NCBI GenBank assembly: GCA_028286395.1
Contig: JAQBRS010000004.1
Span: 29,949-93,948, forward strand
Length of the DNA stretch: 64,000 nt
Direction of reading: 5' to 3'
Source of the DNA: Candidatus Saccharimonadota bacterium
GTDB taxonomy: Bacteria > Patescibacteriota > Saccharimonadia > Saccharimonadales > Saccharimonadaceae
Positions 1,088-10,769 of the stretch are shown here, one piece after another (position 1 is the first letter of the stretch; each line of letters begins with the position of its first letter). The position numbers were made by a program, and so were the translations under genes. Under the pieces are notes generated by a model. It worked only from the letters and a program-made list of their open reading frames with translations. It had not been told where the DNA came from and made no database searches.

Positions 1088-1618
1088 CTATACAATTTCG
1101 TCAATTGCTGTTTTGATTTTTTCTGTAACACTTGCTTCGTCAAGAGCTGTTCCATCAACATTAATGTCCTTCATGAAGGCGAGTTCAGCAGGGTTGTGCT
1201 TGTAGTCAGCCTTAAGCCATGGGAGGATATGATCCAAAGCAGCGATAGATAGTGAACCACCGGTCCACCCATATCCAATGATAGCGATTGGCTTGTCGAT
1301 CCATTCGTTCTTGAGTGAGTCGATAGCATTCTTTTGGATTGCATTCAGTGAGTGGTTGTACTCGGGAGTGAGCCAAACGATCGCATTTGCTTCAGTGACA
1401 AGCTTGCCCCACTTGATAACTGCGGGGTCAGTTGGGATGTAGTCTGGTGACGCAGGCGCAAGTTCGTGCGCATAGAAAGGAAGGTTAATGTCCTTAAGAT
1501 CAGCGACAACGATATTCACACCATCGCGTGTATGAAGGTCTTTCTTTACGAGATCAAAAATATTATCCGCGGCACGGCCTTTGCGAGCGCTCGATAGCAC
1601 AACTAAAACATTTGACAT
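1088..1618 (-). CDS. NADPH-dependent FMN reductase (flavodoxin-like fold)
   Basis: N-terminal VLSSARKGR, TPEYNHS..QKNAID, W.DKPIAIIGYG; AAGGAG RBS upstream. Confidence 0.88.
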   Translation of the reverse strand: MSNVLVVLSSARKGRAADNIFDLVKKDLHTRDGVNIVVADLKDINLPFYAHELAPASPDYIPTDPAVIKWGKLVTEANAIVWLTPEYNHSLNAIQKNAIDSLKNEWIDKPIAIIGYGWTGGSLSIAALDHILPWLKADYKHNPAELAFMKDINVDGTALDEASVTEKIKTAIDEIV

Positions 1619-1726
1619 GAAATATGACTCCTTTTCATTCCGGAAATCGCAGGAGCGACGGGCAATGGTCTAATTTATTAGTATCTTTAGTATAGCATGA
1701 TTGCTATACATAATATAGTATTTATT

Positions 1727-3028
1727 CTATTTCTTTAGATCGAAAATAACAAGATTTTCAATGTGTGGCGTGCGAGGGAAGAAGTTGTAGCCCTGGTGCG
1801 AAGTGATTTCATATTTCTCTAATAGAAGGGCAACGTCACGAGCTTGAGTGACGGGGTTACATGACAGGTAAATGATGCGAGCAGGTGTCGTTTCAAGCAA
1901 ACGCTCAATAATAGTCTTGTCCAGTCCTGCACGAGGCGGATCAACAATGATAGTCGCATCGCCAGTAATAAAGTCGAGGGCTTTTTCGCTCGGTGCGTGG
2001 ACAGCTTGAGCATTCTTTATTTTCAAACGGTCGATATTTTCTTTCATCTCACGGACAGCACCCTCGTTGATTTCAACGAGGGTCAAGTCACCGGCGCCAA
2101 TCGTCAGGCCGATTGTTCCCACGCCGCTATATAGGTCGACAGTAGGTTTCGCAGGGTCAACAAATGCTTTCATATCAAGCAACGCTTTTTGGTAGACAGG
2201 TAGGTTAATTTGGAAGAAGCTTTCAGTTGCGTAGCTAAACGGCACGTCGTTGATTGTGTCAGTCAGCGGAACCTTGCCCCATTCTTGAAGCCGTTTCGTG
2301 ATGACGCTGGCTGGGCTGTTGGGATTCGAATAAATCATTTCAAAACCTTTGACGCCAAGCGCTTCAATATCAATTGGACGGATCGGGTTAAATGATTCGC
2401 TCTTTACATACAGTTGCATTGAAACGTCGCCTTGTTGGTTGGCGCGAACAAGCAGGGTCTTTAGTGAAAAACCGGTTGCGTGGTGCGCGCGAAGCAGGTC
2501 ACGCATCGCAAGCGCCGTCTTATTAATACTATCCATCGCAAGGTGACTACCTTCGACAGGAACTTTACTGTGGGTGCCACGGCCGAAGAAGGCGAGGTCA
2601 AGCTGTTCGGTTTCTTTGTCCCAGTACCAACTGAATTCCATTTTGTTTCGGTAGCCGAATTCGTGATCGTCAGAATAAACATCGATAGTGCCAGGAAGGG
2701 TGACGCCATGTAGTGCAAAGGCTTCTTTAATAAGTTCGGCTTTGTGCTGTTGCTCGCTAGCGAATTTCATAATCTGCCACGGACTGGTAGAGACGTAGCT
2801 GCCTGGATCAAGGGCTTCGATGCGATCTTTGGCTGGCTTTAAGACTGAGATAACGTAGCCTTCTGCGAAACTATTTTTTTTGCGGAAAAGCTGGACTTCA
2901 ACCTCTTCGGTCGGTAATCCACCCCATACAAAAAGTTTGCGGCCATCGTCCATGGTCGCGAGAGTTTGTCCGCCGCCAACAATCTTTTCGAGGGTGACAG
3001 TAACGATAGGGAAGGGTCGTTTACTCAT
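1727..3028 (-). CDS. rlmD: 23S rRNA m5U methyltransferase, RlmD/TrmA family, with TRAM domain
   Basis: N-terminal TRAM-like strand pattern, SFFQIN, DLYSGVGTIGL, VDPPRAGL, IIYLSCNP (catalytic Cys), FFPRTPHIE. Confidence 0.85.
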   Translation of the reverse strand: MSKRPFPIVTVTLEKIVGGGQTLATMDDGRKLFVWGGLPTEEVEVQLFRKKNSFAEGYVISVLKPAKDRIEALDPGSYVSTSPWQIMKFASEQQHKAELIKEAFALHGVTLPGTIDVYSDDHEFGYRNKMEFSWYWDKETEQLDLAFFGRGTHSKVPVEGSHLAMDSINKTALAMRDLLRAHHATGFSLKTLLVRANQQGDVSMQLYVKSESFNPIRPIDIEALGVKGFEMIYSNPNSPASVITKRLQEWGKVPLTDTINDVPFSYATESFFQINLPVYQKALLDMKAFVDPAKPTVDLYSGVGTIGLTIGAGDLTLVEINEGAVREMKENIDRLKIKNAQAVHAPSEKALDFITGDATIIVDPPRAGLDKTIIERLLETTPARIIYLSCNPVTQARDVALLLEKYEITSHQGYNFFPRTPHIENLVIFDLKK

Positions 3029-3082: not shown

Positions 3083-3817
3083 ATGGCACGTCTCGATAAT
3101 TATTCTCAGCACAACCTCCGCGGCCAGGACTTTATTAAAGAACTGATTGGGCACACGAACATTAAACCCACCGACCTTGTTTATGACATTGGTGCTGGTA
3201 CGGGTGTGATTACTGCAGCACTTGCTCAGAAAGCAAAGTTTGTTGTTGCGATTGAGTTCGAGCCGCAAGCGGCCGCAAAGCTACGCGAGAATATCGAAGG
3301 ACACTACCCAAACGTTGATATTATTGAAGGCGATTTTTTAAAGTTAGAACTGCCAAACAAGCCCTACAAGATCTTCGCGAATATTCCGTTCCACCTGAGT
3401 TCGCCGATTATTCATAAGATTACTGAAAATGTGAATCCGCCCTCTGCTGCATACTTAATCGTGCAAAAACAATTTGCGAACAAATTATTGCCAAATTCGG
3501 ATAAGTTTACAGGACAACTCGGCATGATGATCGGTCCAACCTTCGGTGTTCGTATTCGGCGTCCACTAAAACGATCTGACTATACGCCACCGCCGGCCGT
3601 CGACACAGTGTTGATTGAAATCAAGAAACGCGACGAGCCGTTTATTCCGCTGAATGAAATGGAGAAGTATCGTGGGTTCATCGAAGGCTGTTTTTCAGAT
3701 CCTAAGATTTTTGCGAAGACACCGCAGAAAAAGATTGGACTGCCTGCGGGGATTAAGCCATCTGAGATGCGATTACATCAATGGGTAGAGTTGTTCAACG
3801 AGTACAAATTCAAATAG
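3083..3817 (+). CDS. rRNA adenine N6-methyltransferase, Erm/KsgA family (more Erm-like)
   Basis: SQH motif, DIGAGTG SAM-binding loop, NIPF catalytic motif, YTPPPAVDT; C-terminus QWVELFNEYK resembles the end of Erm proteins. Confidence 0.8.
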   Translation: MARLDNYSQHNLRGQDFIKELIGHTNIKPTDLVYDIGAGTGVITAALAQKAKFVVAIEFEPQAAAKLRENIEGHYPNVDIIEGDFLKLELPNKPYKIFANIPFHLSSPIIHKITENVNPPSAAYLIVQKQFANKLLPNSDKFTGQLGMMIGPTFGVRIRRPLKRSDYTPPPAVDTVLIEIKKRDEPFIPLNEMEKYRGFIEGCFSDPKIFAKTPQKKIGLPAGIKPSEMRLHQWVELFNEYKFK

Positions 3818-3820
3818 ACA

Positions 3821-3862
3821 TGAAATCGTCGCGCTCTACTGAAAGAAACGCGACGTATTTCA
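3821..3862. terminator. GC-rich hairpin between convergent transcripts
   Basis: tgaaatcgtcgcg ... cgcgacgtatttca: 13-bp stem with a single bulge. Confidence 0.55.
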
Positions 3863-3886
3863 CCCAAGGATCTGGATAGGTGTCGG

Positions 3887-4036
3887 CTAAACCCAGCCGT
3901 ATGTTTTCGTGCACTTGGGGTTGCCAGTGCACTTGGGGTGGGGCTCGGCTACGGCGGAGTTGGTGCCATTACAGGCATTACAGCTCTCATCGTTGCAGCA
4001 TTCCCCGCTTATATAGACGTACCGTTTTCGTGCCAT
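3887..4036 (-). CDS. Small Cys-rich peptide, 49 aa (MARKRYVYISGECCNDESCNACNGTNSAVAEPHPKCTGNPKCTKTYGWV)
   Basis: Manual translation; AGGA 6 nt before ATG 4036 (alternative ATG at 4042); starts just after the stop of the upstream small ORF; below the ORF-track size cutoff. Confidence 0.5.
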   Translation of the reverse strand: MARKRYVYISGECCNDESCNACNGTNSAVAEPHPKCTGNPKCTKTYGWV

Positions 4037-4051
4037 TGTCATTCCTAACTA

Positions 4052-4285
4052 CTAGAGGGGCTTGACGTCGATCTGGGACCAGAGGACGAAGAAATGGTGT
4101 CGTCTCCAATTGTCGCCATACTTTTTATCGCAGGCTTTCTTGAAGTCGGAGCACACATATTTGCGTGCTGTGTCGCGAGCCTTAAGGTTGGTGCCATTAA
4201 GGATCTCGAGTGTCGTGGGGCTGATATAAATATCTGCCTCGAATCGGTCAACATGTTTGACATGGTGAGTCGGCTCATGAGCCAC
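4052..4285 (-). CDS. Hypothetical protein, 77 aa
   Basis: AGGAGG 8 nt upstream of GTG 4285; TATAAT on the minus strand near 4342-4347. Confidence 0.6.
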   Translation of the reverse strand: MAHEPTHHVKHVDRFEADIYISPTTLEILNGTNLKARDTARKYVCSDFKKACDKKYGDNWRRHHFFVLWSQIDVKPL

Positions 4286-4421
4286 TGTTCTCACCTCCTA
4301 TCTGATTGAGGGTGAAATGTGCACACCGAAGTGTTGATGATATTATATCACAAATGGACAATTAAATCAATACATGAGCCTATAATTAATCTGATATACT
4401 AAAAAAGCTAAACAATTAAAC

Positions 4422-4583
4422 ACGTATCCAGAGTGCAGCGAGAGATCTAGCTCTATGACCTGCCGGCAACCAGCCTTCGTATCTATTATGAAGACAACGG
4501 TGCCCCTTCTAGCCCTAACGGGAAGATAGACGTTCACTCCTTCTACCTTTCCTGTTACGGCGCGAAAGATACGTAGAAGGAGT
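4422..4583 (+). ncRNA. SAM-I (S-box) riboswitch with translational (RBS-sequestering) expression platform
   Basis: S-box core words ATCCAGAG (4426-4433), GGCAACC (4465-4471), GGTGCC (4499-4504), AAGAT (4523-4527). Perfect 11-bp helix actccttctac (4536-4546)/gtagaaggagt (4573-4583) covers the metK RBS. Lies directly upstream of metK. Confidence 0.85.
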
Positions 4584-4589
4584 ATTTTT

Positions 4590-5552
4590 ATGTCAATTTT
4601 TAAAACAGCCGAGAGCGTCTCACCAAAACATCCAGACAAGATTTGTGATCAGATATCTGATGCGATATTGGATGCGCATTTAATGGAAGACCCAAATGCG
4701 CGTGTTGCCGTCGATGTTGCCGGCGGGCACGGCGTCGTCTTTGTGACGGGTGAAGTAACGTCAAAGGCAAAGAATGTTGATGTCGTGGCGATTGTGAAGC
4801 GACTGGCGGGTGACGTTGAAGTTATCGAGCATATTGCAGCGCAGAGTCCCGAGATTGCACAGGGCGTTGATACCGGTGGTGCGGGTGATCAGGGAATTAT
4901 GGTTGGGTATGCGACGAACGAAACTGTTGAATTATTACCTTTAGAATTCGTGCTTGCTCGTAAGTTGAACCAGTATTTATATAAGATTTGGCCATATGAT
5001 GGGAAGACGCAGGTGACGACAAAAGACGGTAAGATTGTATCGATTGTCGCAAGTTTCCAGCATGCGCCACAAGCCAAGCTACAGGCGAGTGTCTTGGACT
5101 GGGTAAAACAAGAACCGACTGCCGTCGCCAGCGAAGATGTTTCATTACACGTTAACCCAGCAGGGGATTGGGAACTGGGTGGCTTTGATGCCGATGCTGG
5201 ACTGACTGGTCGCAAACTGATCGTTGATAATTATGGTCCACGTATTCCAATCGGTGGAGGCGCATTTAGTGGCAAAGATCCAAGCAAGGTTGATCGATCA
5301 GCTGCGTATATGGCACGAAAGGTAGCGGTTGATTATTTGAAGGCGCGTGATGCGAAAGAAGTCTTTGTGTATTTGGCGTATGCGATTGGGTATGATCAGC
5401 CACTAGAAGCTACTGTGGTAATTGATGGCAAAGAGGAAATTGTCGAAGGGTATGATTTGTCACCGAATGGGATTATTAAGACGTTGGATTTGAAGCGACC
5501 TATTTATGAGACGACGGCGAGATATGGGCACTTTGGTTATGAGGACGAGTAA
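4590..5552 (+). CDS. metK: S-adenosylmethionine synthetase (short form)
   Basis: ESVSPKHPDKICDQISDA, GAGDQGIMVGYA, GLTGRKLIVDNYG, GGGAFSGKDPSKVDRSAAY, TARYGHFG. Confidence 0.97.
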   Translation: MSIFKTAESVSPKHPDKICDQISDAILDAHLMEDPNARVAVDVAGGHGVVFVTGEVTSKAKNVDVVAIVKRLAGDVEVIEHIAAQSPEIAQGVDTGGAGDQGIMVGYATNETVELLPLEFVLARKLNQYLYKIWPYDGKTQVTTKDGKIVSIVASFQHAPQAKLQASVLDWVKQEPTAVASEDVSLHVNPAGDWELGGFDADAGLTGRKLIVDNYGPRIPIGGGAFSGKDPSKVDRSAAYMARKVAVDYLKARDAKEVFVYLAYAIGYDQPLEATVVIDGKEEIVEGYDLSPNGIIKTLDLKRPIYETTARYGHFGYEDE

Positions 5553-7024
5553 GATTTCAGGAATTCCTTATCATTTAAATGTTTTTTAAGATCTAACTTG
5601 GCAATTTCCCTTAGCGGATCAAGTACATTTTGAATAAAATCGTTCTCTTTTTTTAAAAGATTTGAATTTAATAAGATATTTTCTGCAGAATCTATATTAT
5701 CAATGATTTCCAGAAGTGATTCTTCTAGAATAGAATTCCAAAATATTCGCTGTAGATTTTCTGTAAGTTCATCAAGTTCCTGTTGACCCTTTTGTACTCT
5801 TGCAGATCTAAGTAATTTTGAAACGACATAGTTTATGTGACCATTTTTTAAGTCTTCTTTCCAATCTTTGACATCATCCCCAATTTGTCTAGCGATTAAG
5901 TACTTATTCAATGCGTCATTAAGAGATTTTTCCTGTGCGATTGGAGTCTTGTTGAGTTTAAGGAGTAGTTTAGGTCCAAGAACATGACCAACCGATCTTT
6001 GTGCTAGGAAATCCCCATCTCCATAATCGGGAGGGTTGTCTATGAAAATATACCCATCTTTAACAATAAATCTGCAGTTCTCTAATTCCCAAAGGTTTGA
6101 GTTGTCGACTGAATCATAGTGAAGATTTATAAAATCAGTTTGTGCAGAAAATTTTTGCGTATATGCTTGGTAGGATAGTCTGTGCATGATATTTGCCAAA
6201 GATAATTGTGGCGGCGATCCTTCCTCGTCAATAAAGTCATCGTATATCGTGTATGCAATCCACGCATAAATATTAGCTACACCGAGGTGGTAACTCAATT
6301 CCAAATCACTTTTTGTTGGGCATTTAACTAATGAATTTACAAAATAGAAACTCAAGAGCGATATTTCACTTCTTTTGTCTACGGATATGATTTTATCTAA
6401 AAATGCGATACCTATTTTTTCTATGGTAGGGTTTAGTTTCTTTATCTCTTTTTTAGCAATTAAGTATGGTCGATTTATTTTACTTTTTTTGTGGTCGTTG
6501 TGGTTTGTTCGTTTTGATAGACCTAACGCACTCCTCTGAAATTCTGTTTTTGGGATTAGTTTTTGGTTTAGTAAAAATTTCTCTAAATTTGGTAGCGGTG
6601 AATCAAAAGTTCGGAATAGTTGTGCGATTAGGGTATTAGTATATAGGTCATTCTTAGATAAGTACGGGCCACCGATTTCTAATTCTGAGCTAATAAGTCT
6701 TTTGGCTAGTATTCCTAATATGTCACCAGTTATTAAGTTTGGATTTGCAAGGTATAATATATGGATTTGAATAATTAATTTATCTATAGAATAGTCCCGA
6801 GTCCACACTTTATAATCTTCGGCCATTGCCTGTATATGATTACTGTATTTATTCAGATTGTCATTAAGATACGCATTTACTAACGTAGAAAGGTTGATCT
6901 TCACACTGGTATTCTCGCTTAGATGGTTAAGGTGGTGTTCGAGATTAAATTTATCTCGAACACCGTCTTTGTCAGTCGAACCAAGGTGTTTCGACGTCGC
7001 TTTTTTCAGCAAGCTTTGCTTCAA
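5537..7024 (-). CDS. Class I isoprenoid-synthase-fold (trans-IDS-like) enzyme with an extra N-terminal domain; candidate ComQ-like peptide prenyltransferase. True start may be downstream (e.g. GTG 6904).
   Basis: First Asp-rich motif LGVANIYAWIAYTIYDDFIDEE; second motif RQIGDDVKDWKEDLKNG; AT-rich sequence. Confidence 0.7.
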   Translation of the reverse strand: MKQSLLKKATSKHLGSTDKDGVRDKFNLEHHLNHLSENTSVKINLSTLVNAYLNDNLNKYSNHIQAMAEDYKVWTRDYSIDKLIIQIHILYLANPNLITGDILGILAKRLISSELEIGGPYLSKNDLYTNTLIAQLFRTFDSPLPNLEKFLLNQKLIPKTEFQRSALGLSKRTNHNDHKKSKINRPYLIAKKEIKKLNPTIEKIGIAFLDKIISVDKRSEISLLSFYFVNSLVKCPTKSDLELSYHLGVANIYAWIAYTIYDDFIDEEGSPPQLSLANIMHRLSYQAYTQKFSAQTDFINLHYDSVDNSNLWELENCRFIVKDGYIFIDNPPDYGDGDFLAQRSVGHVLGPKLLLKLNKTPIAQEKSLNDALNKYLIARQIGDDVKDWKEDLKNGHINYVVSKLLRSARVQKGQQELDELTENLQRIFWNSILEESLLEIIDNIDSAENILLNSNLLKKENDFIQNVLDPLREIAKLDLKKHLNDKEFLKSYSSS

Positions 7025-7082
7025 CGGCTTGGCTGCTTCGTAAATTCGAGTCAGTTAATACTTTTTGTAGAGTATCAATCAT
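6972..7082 (-). CDS. 36-aa candidate precursor peptide MIDTLQKVLTDSNLRSSQAVEAKLAEKSDVETPWFD
   Basis: Manual translation; GAGGGAAAGGA RBS ends 9 nt before ATG 7082; in-frame stop just upstream, so this is the only start; lies immediately 5' of the IDS-like gene; below the ORF-track cutoff. Confidence 0.65.
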   Translation of the reverse strand: MIDTLQKVLTDSNLRSSQAVEAKLAEKSDVETPWFD

Positions 7083-7326
7083 TGCATATTATCCTTTCCC
7101 TCATTAATCTTAAGCATTTCGACATAATGCTTCGGTTATTTAACCCGATTAGGAATGGAGAAAGATATTTGAGTCAGTGAAGGCTTAACGGTGTCTCAGA
7201 TGCTGTTCCTGTAATTAGCATAGCATAAGCTTAAATTTAACCATATACTTGCTTGTTTTTAGATTGGTATACATATTACATAATGAACGGCGTATAATAC
7301 CCACTAAAGGGTGCTAAGGAGGTACC

Positions 7327-8568
7327 ATGGCTTGGGATTATGAAACATCTGAAGATAAAGGATTAATTTTAACGCATGTTTGGAAAGATGATGACACTGC
7401 GAAAAAAATACTAGTCTTCGCCGAGGATAAGAAAAAAAGAACAATAATCTATTATCCAAAAGATGAATTTGTTGTGAAAGAAGTTTTACTTGAGGGCTTT
7501 ACGAAACTACCTCCTGAATTTTCACGACTAGGTTATATAGTATCGGCTGGAGGATTACTAAACTCACGCTTAAGTTTACATAAAATTAACTCGCTTACCA
7601 TATCAAAACTGAAAAATGACAGTTTTAGAAAATTGCCTCAAAAAAAATCATTTAACGTGATATTGAGCTACTCATCTTTCTCCAAGTTCAAGGATGGTAT
7701 CTCTGGTATTATCGGACAAGCAAAGATAGATAAATCTAATTATACTGACGATTTTTTTCATAATACTTTTCCTGCTGTCTATAAAGAAAATACGAGTGGA
7801 ATATCCAAAGCTCGTGTAAGGAGGGCTGTCCAAAGTCTGGATAGTTCTGCAATATCAGACTTAACTCCTGCAGATATCGAAAAACTAATCAACTTCTTTT
7901 CTGTATTAATTACTAAAAGGTATACATCCGCGGCAAATCGCAATAAACTATTAAGTGCCGCAAAAATCCAGGTTGATCAGGTTGCAGTGAAAGACGTCAT
8001 TAAGCAGTTCGAAAAGTTATTAGAAAAAGAAAGGCCTGAGTCGGAGTGGAGTACATTCCTTCAAGAAAACTTATTTCTTTTAAACCCTGAATACGTAGGT
8101 ATTCTTCCAGAACTAAATCTTATGTTAGCTTCTGATCGCAATGTCGACTTTGGCTTAGTAAACTCTAACGGCTATCTCGATATATTTGAAATTAAAAAGC
8201 CTCAAACACAACTTCTAGCTAAAAATACGGACAGAGGTAATTACTATTGGAGTACCGAAGCTGTAAAAGCAATCACTCAAGCTGAGAAATATTTATACAA
8301 TGCCGAGAAAAAAGCAGCAAATCTTGCACAAGATATTAAGCGAGAAAGAAAAGTAGACGTCAAAGTCATCAAACCTAAAGCAATTTTAATTTTAGGAAGT
8401 GGTGATCAGCTAGATGATCCGTCTAAAGATGAAGATTTTCAAATACTACGGCGAGCATTAAAAAATGTGGAAATTATACTGTATGACGAAATGCTTACAA
8501 AATTGAAAAATCAGCTTGGGAAGATATATTCAAAACCAAATATTGATTCTGCTATTACTAAGAATTAG
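7327..8568 (+). CDS. sduA: Shedu anti-phage nuclease (DUF4263 C-terminal domain)
   Basis: C-terminal SEWSTFLQENLFLL, VDFGLV..GYLDIFEIKKP (PD-(D/E)xK), KAITQAEKY (QxxxY), PKAILILGS, VEIILYDEML; AAGGAGG RBS. Confidence 0.85.
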   Translation: MAWDYETSEDKGLILTHVWKDDDTAKKILVFAEDKKKRTIIYYPKDEFVVKEVLLEGFTKLPPEFSRLGYIVSAGGLLNSRLSLHKINSLTISKLKNDSFRKLPQKKSFNVILSYSSFSKFKDGISGIIGQAKIDKSNYTDDFFHNTFPAVYKENTSGISKARVRRAVQSLDSSAISDLTPADIEKLINFFSVLITKRYTSAANRNKLLSAAKIQVDQVAVKDVIKQFEKLLEKERPESEWSTFLQENLFLLNPEYVGILPELNLMLASDRNVDFGLVNSNGYLDIFEIKKPQTQLLAKNTDRGNYYWSTEAVKAITQAEKYLYNAEKKAANLAQDIKRERKVDVKVIKPKAILILGSGDQLDDPSKDEDFQILRRALKNVEIILYDEMLTKLKNQLGKIYSKPNIDSAITKN

Positions 8569-8572
8569 ATAC

Positions 8573-9211
8573 TCAACTCGCTATCTTATCTAAGCCAAGA
8601 GAGAGTAGTATATTATGTAATGCTACGCCCGCTAGTCCAACAGAAGTAGCCGTAGTTGAAACCAAGCTAATTAGATCAGCTAAGCTTTTTATCTTGCTGA
8701 GTTGAGATTTTAAGCTAATAACGAAATTCTTTTCTGGGCTTTTATCTGCTAATTTTGCATCCAGTGAATCTATATTATTTGATAAGGTTTGTAAAAACTC
8801 CTGATTAATTACAACGGATTGAGTGCTTGATACTTCATTATGGTAAGTCAAATTAGTTACAGCTGCGGCAGGGGAATCATATGGAGATCTGACCTCTTGA
8901 ACATATCGTGAACGTAGTCTTCCAAGTACACCACCGAGTTGGGTATACAAGTCTATCCTGTCACATGTTTGTTTATCGCTAACCATTTCAATATTTGGTA
9001 AATAAATATCAAAATCATAATCTATTTCTTCTTCTAATTCAGAAAGACATTGTATATAAGTGACTAATGAGCTTCCAGTTATAGTTCCATCTTGACCTTT
9101 TAGATCATGCCACATAGCATCTAGTGAAAAATATATATCACGTATTTTCTGTACATCAGGTTGTGCAGGAATTTGTTCGTTCGATACTATGATAATTTGA
9201 TCATCGGGCAT
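8573..9211 (-). CDS. Hypothetical protein with a helical, hydrophobic C-terminus
   Basis: Open frame. ATG 9211 lies 1 nt after the upstream TAA, suggesting translational coupling; the track's start at 9265 overlaps the upstream gene. Confidence 0.65.
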   Translation of the reverse strand: MPDDQIIIVSNEQIPAQPDVQKIRDIYFSLDAMWHDLKGQDGTITGSSLVTYIQCLSELEEEIDYDFDIYLPNIEMVSDKQTCDRIDLYTQLGGVLGRLRSRYVQEVRSPYDSPAAAVTNLTYHNEVSSTQSVVINQEFLQTLSNNIDSLDAKLADKSPEKNFVISLKSQLSKIKSLADLISLVSTTATSVGLAGVALHNILLSLGLDKIAS

Positions 9212-9212
9212 A

Positions 9213-10115
9213 TTAGAACCATCTGGCTTGTTTTGCAAACTCTTCAACAACGTCATATGCTGCAATCGATCTGCTTAGTGAACCCCCAAACATACCAGTT
9301 TTAAGTGCAGGCCACTTATCATCGCTTGCCATATCCTTCATGTCAGATAGTGTGCCTTGTGATGTTAAACGCTCCCTCCAAAGATAACGTCCTCCCGGAA
9401 CCCAGCTTTTATAAGAAGCTTCCCTTGTGATGTTTACGTCTGCATACTTCATTGCTAAAAGCACTTCCCAGTGATCAAATATGTCATCAAAATTTTTACC
9501 AAAGAACAATTCTTTTGGTAGGTTCTCATAAATTAAGTCATGAAAATGATCACTCAATGGAGTTTTCCGATTATCCAGTTCTAAAAGTACGTTAGCCCCT
9601 GTGCCCAAAAGTGTTGAATTAGCAGTCATTATCAACGGCATCTTTTGATCGATATTGTAATTATAGACACCTACATCAAGAACTGCATTAATGACGTCAT
9701 AATTGTTTACCGCAATACCTACTACACCAGCGACATATGTCATTAAAAGTGCAGGATAAAGCTGAAGATCTATAAGGAAAACGCTACCGGCGTTTTCGGG
9801 TTTTTCTACCAAAGTATTAATGATTCCGGTCCAAAGATAATCTTGGGCCTCAGTTCCAAAATACACACCGTATCCGAGCAGAACGCTCAGATCTTTTGTC
9901 GCCTCGTCATACTTAGCGATGTACTGTTTCGCTGTCCCTGCGATATCGTTAGTACCAACAGGCATACCCTTGATAACGTCGTAAATTTTTTCAGTCTCGT
10001 CAAAAACGAGTGTGTGCAGTGCTATTTTTTCTTTTGGGTCGCTAAGCAAGGCTTTGACATCAGCTCTGGCAATTTTCTTAGGGGACCGAGATAAATCTTT
10101 TTTATTCTCCGACAT
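9213..10115 (-). CDS. Hypothetical protein resembling the helical C-terminal region of some SIR2/TIR/caspase-effector proteins
   Basis: LYPALLMTYVAGVVGIA, KTPLSDHFHDL, FDDIFDHWEVLLA, WVPGGRYLWR (similarity recalled, not searched); TATAAT 6 nt before ATG. Confidence 0.6.
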   Translation of the reverse strand: MSENKKDLSRSPKKIARADVKALLSDPKEKIALHTLVFDETEKIYDVIKGMPVGTNDIAGTAKQYIAKYDEATKDLSVLLGYGVYFGTEAQDYLWTGIINTLVEKPENAGSVFLIDLQLYPALLMTYVAGVVGIAVNNYDVINAVLDVGVYNYNIDQKMPLIMTANSTLLGTGANVLLELDNRKTPLSDHFHDLIYENLPKELFFGKNFDDIFDHWEVLLAMKYADVNITREASYKSWVPGGRYLWRERLTSQGTLSDMKDMASDDKWPALKTGMFGGSLSRSIAAYDVVEEFAKQARWF

Positions 10116-10229
10116 GTATTTATTATAACTCCTCTTGTATGTTCTCGGAACATTTAATCCGTTGCACTACATCTCTATTCTCTCGCATCACTACTGCAGC
10201 AACTGTGATTTGTAGAGTATCATATACAT

Positions 10230-10769
10230 ATGACCGAAATCATCCACGTCTTAATTCGCCTCATCGCCGACGGTGGTGTCGTTCTCGTCGTCCTAATTGG
10301 TGCCTGGGCGCTCATCTTCAAAATACCAAAAGGCGGTCGCTTCGAAGCCTACACTCGCATCCTCATGGCTGGCTTAACTTCTTACCTTATCGCAAAATTC
10401 ATCGCCTCAATCTATCAGCCGAACTTCGAACGTCCCTTTGAAATCCTTGGTGTCCAACCAGGCGCCCTATATCTGAATAACCCCGGCTTCCCGTCAGATC
10501 ACGCGCTCTTTGTCACCGCAATCACAGCAGCGGTGTGGTTTGAGACAAAAATGAAGAAAACGACGCTACTGCTGGTGGTACTGACGGTTCTTATATGTGT
10601 CGGTCGCGTCCTTGCATTAGTTCACACGCCGCTTGATGTCATCGGAGGGGTTGTCATCGGCCTTGTCGGTGCGGTATGGTATGTAAATAAGGCACGAAGT
10701 AAGAAGCGGGTGGGAGAAAAAGAGGTGAGTCATGGCACAGGTAATCATCACAGATCAGCAGGTCATTAG
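10230..10769 (+). CDS. PAP2-family phosphatase (undecaprenyl-pyrophosphate phosphatase-like)
   Basis: RPF, FPSDHA and GRVLALVHTPLDVIGG motifs; hydrophobic segments. Confidence 0.85.
   Translation: MTEIIHVLIRLIADGGVVLVVLIGAWALIFKIPKGGRFEAYTRILMAGLTSYLIAKFIASIYQPNFERPFEILGVQPGALYLNNPGFPSDHALFVTAITAAVWFETKMKKTTLLLVVLTVLICVGRVLALVHTPLDVIGGVVIGLVGAVWYVNKARSKKRVGEKEVSHGTGNHHRSAGH

Follow-up and report, generated by a model that had tools for sequence, protein, structure and literature searches.

A conserved Trp-containing precursor peptide beside an enzyme of predicted trans-isoprenyl diphosphate synthase fold in Saccharibacteria, a candidate prenylated-peptide system encoded with a two-component system in most relatives

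Patescibacteria are ultra-small bacteria with reduced genomes, and to our knowledge little is known about how their cells signal to one another. Within 64,000 nucleotides of soil metagenome DNA assigned to a Candidatus Saccharimonadota bacterium (contig JAQBRS010000004.1, positions 29,949 to 93,948; the whole stretch is hereafter the window), we found that a short open reading frame (ORF) on the minus strand (6972..7082, stop codon included) is a genuine gene for a 36-residue peptide, MIDTLQKVLTDSNLRSSQAVEAKLAEKSDVETPWFD, and that it lies upstream of a gene for an enzyme predicted to have the trans-isoprenyl diphosphate synthase (trans-IPPS) fold. Among the relatives of this enzyme a peptide family stands beside it whose Trp is invariant and keeps a fixed distance from the start, and these observations, together with the fold and the motifs of the enzyme, make it probable in our judgement that Trp34 (codon 6981..6983, minus strand; the proposed acceptor residue) is prenylated by the adjacent enzyme. 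Comparison of loci indicates that a four-gene cassette widespread in Patescibacteria, in which peptide and enzyme are encoded together with a response regulator (RR) and a histidine kinase (HK), has been pared down to the module seen in the window.

As the surrounding 7.5 kb contained some 75 ORFs with 25 residues or more, the length of an ORF alone proves nothing, and the reality of the peptide gene needed a comparative test. A preliminary description of this DNA, made from its letters alone, had read the ORF at 7082-6972 with this same product, and the sequence, which begins with ATG, agrees with it exactly; its account of the ORF as hidden and unannotated did not hold, because a gene caller had already marked the ORF (P0178) on the 126-kb source contig, and it is unnamed rather than hidden. 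A purine run resembling a Shine-Dalgarno (SD) sequence, GAGGGAAAGGA, is read directly from the same strand at 7092..7102, 9-15 nt 5' of the peptide ATG. The protein collection held 75 related peptide clusters, all named 'hypothetical' and without a Pfam domain, and the window peptide itself had no match among Pfam, NCBIfam and PADLOC models. What establishes the gene as genuine is its conservation in related loci, the codon-position pattern, the SD-like sites and the independent gene calls.

The protein collection contained 53 close homologues of the enzyme, and GTDB species genomes yielded 186 relatives, from which 80 loci were analysed; the genome scan relied on two exact peptide patterns, so that the locus counts underestimate the family. 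By tblastn with the 36-aa peptide, followed by a hidden Markov model (HMM) built from the first matches, a peptide homologue was found in 71 of the 80 loci, always on the strand of the enzyme gene and always upstream of it; a majority of the nine others had no upstream DNA. When 70 peptides (34-51 aa) were aligned, every one had the Trp, with Arg16 and Leu10 each conserved in 69, Thr11 in 61 and a Pro before the Trp in 62. The distance from Met1 to the Trp was always 33-35 residues, and the tail following it ranged from 1 to 17 residues (mode 2), so that the Trp was never terminal. Entropy at codon positions 1, 2 and 3 was 1.36, 1.10 and 1.81 bits respectively, which is the pattern of translated sequence; 66/70 peptides began with ATG, and an SD-like motif was seen at -20 to -5 in 57/70, compared with 12% of random windows. 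The conserved short ORF upstream of enzyme homologues, for which the preliminary description had proposed a search, is thus present and bears an invariant Trp near its C-terminus.

The enzyme gene occupies 5537..6904 on the minus strand and encodes 455 residues from a probable GTG start. Alternative starts are the ATG at 6826 of the public gene call (429 aa, P0001) and the TTG at 7024 of the longest ORF (495 aa), whose numbering is followed for enzyme residues throughout. As the gap between the peptide stop and the enzyme start is 66-73 nt in the closest relatives (67 nt in the window when counted from GTG 6904), and as the N-termini of relatives P0002 and P0006 align from this codon, 6904 was taken as the start, which leaves the enzyme gene without overlap with the peptide gene. 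The two Asp-rich motifs named in the preliminary description, IYDDFIDEE and QIGDDVKDWKED, are both found in this downstream ORF (5537-7024 at its longest).

Profile libraries did not recognise the enzyme: no Pfam, NCBIfam or PADLOC model matched it (for Pfam and NCBIfam, PF00348 included, nothing was returned at E<=1), a phmmer search of PDB sequences gave noise only, and a profile search returned the cyclase domain of a drimenol synthase with no IPPS or ComQ chain. Its AlphaFold2 model, built with 49 homologues (mean predicted local distance difference test score, pLDDT, 94.3), has the all-alpha trans-IPPS fold that the preliminary description had expected. Foldseek comparison of the model with the PDB gave, in the top 50 matches, only trans-IPPS enzymes (decaprenyl, hexaprenyl, octaprenyl and geranylgeranyl diphosphate synthases) or the all-alpha indole prenyltransferase Ord1, with E values for trans-IPPS of about 1e-4 (down to 9e-5), TM-scores of 0.63-0.67 normalised to the target and identities of 12-17%. 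This domain (5540..6481, minus strand) is the proposed peptide Trp prenyltransferase.

The first Asp-rich motif of the domain, D262-D263-F-I-D266 (YDDFID; 6227..6241, minus strand), sits at the end of model helix 172-199 and is the proposed site for Mg2+ and prenyl diphosphate, with D262 and D266 invariant in the 49 homologues. The second, Q380-I-G-D383-D384-V-K-D387-W388-K-E-D391 (5852..5887, minus strand), consists of a Gln and a full DDxxD extended by WxxD (Q-x-x-D-D-x-x-D-W-x-x-D). Invariant residues of the family are W255, D262, D266, E313, Q380, D383, D387, W388 and D391, and among basic residues only R282 is nearly invariant. A search with the prenyltransferase domain on its own gave 1,327 representative clusters (50% identity) at E<=1e-3, of which 1,112 passed E<=1e-10, a family sharply bounded in sequence space, without a long tail into the large synthase superfamily.

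Canonical trans-isoprenyl diphosphate synthases are the best structural matches of the enzyme and have both Asp-rich motifs in common with it, but the enzyme has neither a PF00348 match nor their conserved set of Lys and Arg residues, which binds isopentenyl diphosphate, and no NSE/DTE motif was found in the enzyme family. From the missing PF00348 match, the single nearly invariant Arg, the sharp sequence boundary and the separate PF00348 gene encountered in 10 loci (see below), the sequences indicate that the family is not a chain-elongating trans-isoprenyl diphosphate synthase.

In most loci the gene 5' of the peptide encodes an OmpR-type RR (Pfam Response_reg and Trans_reg_C), and the gene between peptide and enzyme encodes an HK (Pfam HATPase_c, with a weak HisKA match). 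The order RR-peptide-HK-enzyme was colinear in 62/80 loci, and peptide-HK was seen in six more. These genes are tightly packed or overlapping, as in L002, where the RR lies at 3615-4289, the peptide at 4316-4432, the HK at 4436-5842 and the enzyme at 5839-7416. The cassette HK has 5-7 hydrophobic, transmembrane-like segments in its first ~200 residues and no large extracytoplasmic domain; kinases that sense peptides or lipids within the membrane have such a multi-transmembrane architecture. When neighbouring ORFs were clustered, consistent conservation was confined to three of them, namely the enzyme (77 loci), the HK (73) and the RR (67). The presence of RR and HK on either side of the peptide in 62/80 relatives suggests that receptor-coupled signalling was the ancestral logic, and the missing two-component system in the clade of the window is, as judged from these sequences, a secondary loss. 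Where that system is missing (the window, L001, L006, L081 and L083) the peptide is still paired with the enzyme, and this persistence argues that the peptide is tied to the enzyme and not to the kinase.

The next commonest neighbour was a canonical polyprenyl synthetase (PF00348, E 6e-56), whose gene in 10 loci lies against the end of the enzyme gene or runs into it; it lies at 7047-8087 in L018 and 1535-2575 in L013, and in one more locus, L050, it is upstream of the peptide. A prenyl diphosphate synthase beside a non-canonical IPPS-fold protein fits a logic of donor supply plus transferase, and the adjacent synthase is likely a dedicated supply of prenyl donor.

Nearly all relatives among the GTDB species genomes were Saccharibacteria or other Patescibacteria, in agreement with the candidate phyla radiation host that the preliminary description had supposed. 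Some cassette-bearing loci (L040, L049, L060, L062, L065, L067, L069, L077, L080, L031 and L054) are labelled Gammaproteobacteria, Bdellovibrionales, Dormiibacterota or Acidoferrum. As their cassettes look like the Paceibacteria type, and as the named relatives in the protein database are all Patescibacteria save one labelled 'bacterium', these labels are probably binning or labelling errors.

The enzyme also has a vestigial N-terminal domain (6500..6904, minus strand, from alignment with homologues), in which ~135 residues are left of the alpha/alpha barrel of a class II terpene cyclase; it keeps a GGPY motif and has YSIDKL in place of the DDLDDT acid motif. Long homologues (~600-680 aa) have the cyclase domain at the N-terminus followed by the trans-IPPS domain; their N-terminal domain matched bacterial drimenol synthase 9mhs in the profile search (E 6e-8), and Foldseek with a long-form model (pLDDT 93) returned the monodomain class II terpene cyclases AsDMS (4e-10), 8pak and MstE (3e-7). 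The class II acid motif DD[LM]DDT was present in 126/132 long forms and in 0/29 short or mid forms. Some members of the family are named 'terpene cyclase/mutase family protein' by NCBI, and one has a Pfam Terpene_synth_C match.

We propose that the conserved N-terminal segment of the peptide (xxILTDxxxR...) would act as a recognition element docking on the trans-IPPS-fold enzyme, and that the fixed distance from Met to Trp would put Trp34 in the cavity between both Asp motifs, where a prenyl diphosphate held via Mg2+ at D262/D266 would be ionised and then attacked by the indole to give a lipidated peptide. In the long forms the class II cyclase domain would then probably protonate and cyclize the prenyl chain, while in the window, where the acid motif of the cyclase is lost, a linear prenyl group would be expected on the peptide. 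In full cassettes the modified, lipophilic peptide would be the likely ligand and signal of the multi-transmembrane kinase; the prenyl chain length, the export, the processing and the signalling role are parts of the proposal that we infer. On a wider scale, we can picture a Patescibacteria-wide pheromone system for quorum- or contact-sensing in ultra-small episymbionts, in which a Trp-prenylated 36-aa precursor, mostly cyclized to a terpenoid, would be read by an intramembrane-sensing HK and an OmpR-type RR, and in which some soil Saccharibacteria (the window included) would be reduced to a receptor-less, signal-only module that may address other cells or a host. This wider picture is advanced tentatively and could well turn out otherwise, and the earlier idea of an output that acts on a host or serves as a membrane anchor is speculative.

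Several observations weigh against this proposal. Work on ComQ (PMC5331326) has described a full DDxxD second motif as unsuited to the isoprenylation of Trp, and this full motif is invariant in the enzyme family, which means that the chemistry may differ from that of ComQ. The objection is softened, not removed, by a 2026 review (PMC13290415) in which the Gln just before the second motif and the first Asp of that motif are the proposed indole-recognition network in PalQ, ChrPC and Ord1. No HK, RR or canonical polyprenyl synthase was found anywhere in the 64-kb window, and none of the sampled sequence words of the region was present in the metatranscriptomes of the same soil study. ORF clustering over the 80 loci revealed no conserved protease or exporter in the neighbourhoods of the cassette, which extends to the relatives what the preliminary description had remarked on for the window. 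Its companion remark, that no ComP/ComA pair is adjacent, is right for the window but not general, given the RR and multi-transmembrane HK flanking the peptide in most relatives.

The enzyme might instead be a terpene synthase or another maker of a free terpenoid (in the long forms a beta-alpha bifunctional synthase, class II plus class I-like), with the peptide left unmodified and serving as an adaptor or regulator, either for the enzyme or for the two-component system. Such a reading would draw on the two full Asp-rich motifs kept as in true synthases, the fused class II cyclase domain, the terpene cyclase names and the Terpene_synth_C match, and the verdict of the ComQ work on DDxxD (PMC5331326). 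It would leave unexplained why the Trp of a co-inherited 36-aa peptide is invariant and stands at a fixed distance, and why the peptide is kept with the enzyme after loss of the kinase; moreover the family has neither the basic residues nor the HMM signature of chain-elongating synthases, nor NSE/DTE, and the characterized trans-isoprenyl-diphosphate-synthase-like enzymes with adjacent Trp peptides are all peptide prenyltransferases (PMC13290415). We therefore regard the free-terpenoid explanation as unlikely, although serious. The peptide could also be modified at another residue or by other chemistry (at the conserved Thr or Arg, or by reverse or N-prenylation), the Trp serving for recognition only, given that the conservation of T11 (61/70) and R16 (69/70) comes close to that of the Trp and that the second motif is unlike that of ComQ. 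Against this, both T11 and R16 lie within the leader-like, recognition-helix part of the peptide, and all characterized peptide prenyltransferases of this type target Trp (PMC13290415), so that we give modification elsewhere a small probability.

That the peptide and enzyme belong to a neighbouring anti-phage defence island is suggested by position, a divergent SduA gene (Shedu) lying 245 nt upstream of the peptide gene with a PDC-S65-like gene after it, but neither peptide nor enzyme matched any PADLOC model. This assignment, which we consider very improbable, was rejected on the ground that the closest relatives have this pair within the same PAP2...MetK synteny but, where Shedu would stand, carry either a HaeIII-type restriction-modification system or a hypothetical gene. 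Finally, short ORFs abound in AT-rich sequence and the long ORF from TTG 7024 overlaps the peptide frame, as would be expected if the small ORF were a chance open frame and the enzyme started at that TTG. We leave this idea next to no weight, as it is refuted by protein-level conservation in 70 loci, the codon pattern, the SD-like sites, the gene calls and the enzyme starts of the relatives. Prenylation of Trp34 by the adjacent enzyme is thus the reading that we prefer and compare with known systems below.

The preliminary description had called the pair ComX/ComQ-like, and the resemblance stands for the fold, the first motif and the Trp peptide, but membership of the ComQ family does not, given the absence of a PF00348 or NCBIfam match and the full DDxxD. 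Shared with ComQXPA (PMC5331326) are an enzyme of trans-IPPS fold whose first motif is DDxxD, an adjoining short precursor with a Trp near its C-terminus and, in most relatives though not in the window, a multi-transmembrane HK and an RR in the same operon. The second Asp-rich motif (SARM) of ComQ is a pseudo-SARM, NDxxx, in which only the second Asp is kept, whereas the family described here has an invariant full DDxxDWxxD. The gene order RR-X-HK-Q is also unlike that of ComQXPA, and the peptide (34-51 aa) has a strongly conserved N-terminal part, in contrast to ComX (53-58 aa), which is without an obvious N-terminal recognition sequence. The regulator is OmpR-type here and NarL-type in ComQXPA, where it is ComA. 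Further differences are the class II cyclase domain on the enzyme, the host phylum Patescibacteria and a window without kinase and regulator. By the profile libraries and the published motif description, the enzyme is placed outside the ComQ family (IPR033965).

Precursors in ChrPC-type systems are of the proteusin, Nif11 or lasso type. The comparison with ChrPC rests on the description given in a review (PMC13290415) of Hubrich et al. 2024, Chem 10:3224, and extends as far as that description. According to it, ChrPC has a trans-isoprenyl-diphosphate-synthase-like Trp prenyltransferase domain fused to an MstE-like monodomain class II cyclase, as in the long forms here, and a conserved Gln upstream of the second Asp motif, corresponding to Q380 and D383, which are invariant here. 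The cyclase is N-terminal here; set against the same description, the 36-aa precursor family is new and there is coupling to a two-component system; the cyclase of the window enzyme is vestigial and without the acid motif, whereas the long relatives have it.

PalPXQ of Paenibacillus alvei (PMC10853753) likewise has an HK, a precursor with a conserved Trp and a prenyltransferase of the isoprenoid synthase superfamily that forms a separate sequence cluster. PalX, in contrast, is NHLP-type and its Trp must be C-terminal (PMC10853753, PMC13290415), whereas the Trp here is never terminal and no Pfam or NCBIfam domain was recognised in the peptide; PalQ, unlike the long forms, is without a cyclase domain. 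StheQ/StheX of Sphaerobacter thermophilus (bioRxiv 10.64898/2026.08.29.745113) is, like the window, a stand-alone pair of peptide and enzyme without an adjacent two-component system; both enzymes have the IPPS fold, and the spacing of StheQ Q212/N215/D216/D219 equals Q-x-x-(N/D)-D-x-x-D here. Differences are that StheQ has a pseudo-SARM (N215) with no metal seen at that site and that the StheX precursor is 69 aa long compared with 36 aa here. Ord1, which was among the Foldseek matches of the enzyme, prenylates free tryptophan (PMC13290415).

In a literature search that was incomplete, we found no publication tying Patescibacteria or Saccharibacteria to ComQXPA-like systems or to prenylated peptides. 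The chemistry and the circuit logic are familiar; new are the unrecognised enzyme and peptide families, the cyclase-transferase fusion coupled to a two-component system, and the phylum. The comparisons define a new family of precursor peptides, a ~1,100-cluster enzyme family annotated only as 'hypothetical' or 'terpene cyclase/mutase', and a conserved four-gene cassette that joins ComQ-like Trp prenylation and the prenyltransferase-cyclase maturases of RiPPs (peptides synthesised on ribosomes and modified post-translationally) to a two-component receptor. If the proposal is true, it would provide a signal-receptor pair open to experiment in organisms that resist cultivation, as well as new biocatalysts for the lipidation or terpenylation of peptides. 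The receptor-less, cyclase-dead variant of the window is a natural case of module reduction.

Peptide and enzyme alone make up the module in the window, in L001 (Candidatus Microsaccharimonas, 48% identity), in L006 and in the closest relatives, P0002 and P0006 (46-49% identity), in which no HK or RR was found up to 8 kb away. The window, P0002 and P0006 share a synteny of PAP2, a variable segment, peptide, enzyme and convergent MetK, followed by KsgA-like and TrmA-like methyltransferases. As the catalytic-motif residues of the transferase and the conserved residues of the peptide are all intact in the window, the pair appears to be under selection.

The segment between PAP2 and the peptide is a variable hot spot, which in the window (~7100-10230) holds Shedu and the PDC-S65-like gene, in L081 a hypothetical gene (6526-7566) and in L083 a HaeIII-type restriction enzyme with a DNA methylase (1115-3003). 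Because this segment differs between relatives, the defence genes would be insertions beside a stable module and not its partners. The SduA gene lies at 7327-8568 on the plus strand (Pfam SduA_C E 8.6e-29, PADLOC SduA E 1.7e-34). Beyond it, two overlapping ORFs occupy 8573-10115 on the minus strand: the ORF at 9213-10115 matched PDC-S65, a candidate defence protein of PADLOC, over its C-terminal half (E 4e-39; positions 304-591 of a 592-position profile), and the ORF at 8573-9265 had a weak PDC-M14B match only. This region may represent a defence gene that has been cut short or split.

The peptide and enzyme genes of the window are separated by a perfect 12-bp hairpin with a 7-nt loop (6934..6964, minus strand), which starts 7 nt past the peptide stop, has a free energy of -26.6 kcal/mol (z = -4.7) and lacks a U-run. 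Perfect hairpins of 9-14 bp or more, unrelated in sequence, follow just after the peptide stop in ~25/70 loci, and equally strong hairpins were seen in L001 (5901-5960, with a U-run like that of an intrinsic terminator) and in L006 (5792-5835). The intergenic region matched no Rfam family, giving chance matches to microRNA hairpins only, and a promoter and terminator scan returned sites no more frequent than in shuffled sequence. A hairpin after the precursor gene is typical of RiPP operons, and the one described here would likely act as a partial terminator or mRNA stabiliser that raises expression of the precursor over that of the enzyme and so sets the ratio of peptide to enzyme.

Rarer neighbours of the cassette included an ABC-transporter ATPase (11 loci), an upstream Crp-family regulator (9) and downstream RadC-like JAB proteins (6), for example in L005, L011 and L020. 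A PAP2-superfamily phosphatase gene was found near the cassette at 10230-10769 (plus strand) in the window, 2896-3435 in L001, 5003-5506 in L006, where it directly adjoins the peptide gene, and 1634-2131 in L008; some PAP2 enzymes act on prenyl diphosphates, and a functional link between the phosphatase and the cassette is possible. On the other side of the module, the MetK gene of the window (4590-5552, plus strand) is short, encoding 320 aa, and its score of 288.9 bits does not reach the 309.4 set as cut-off by the NCBIfam metK model. At its 3' end it shares 16 nt with the convergent enzyme gene, MetK being convergent in relatives also.

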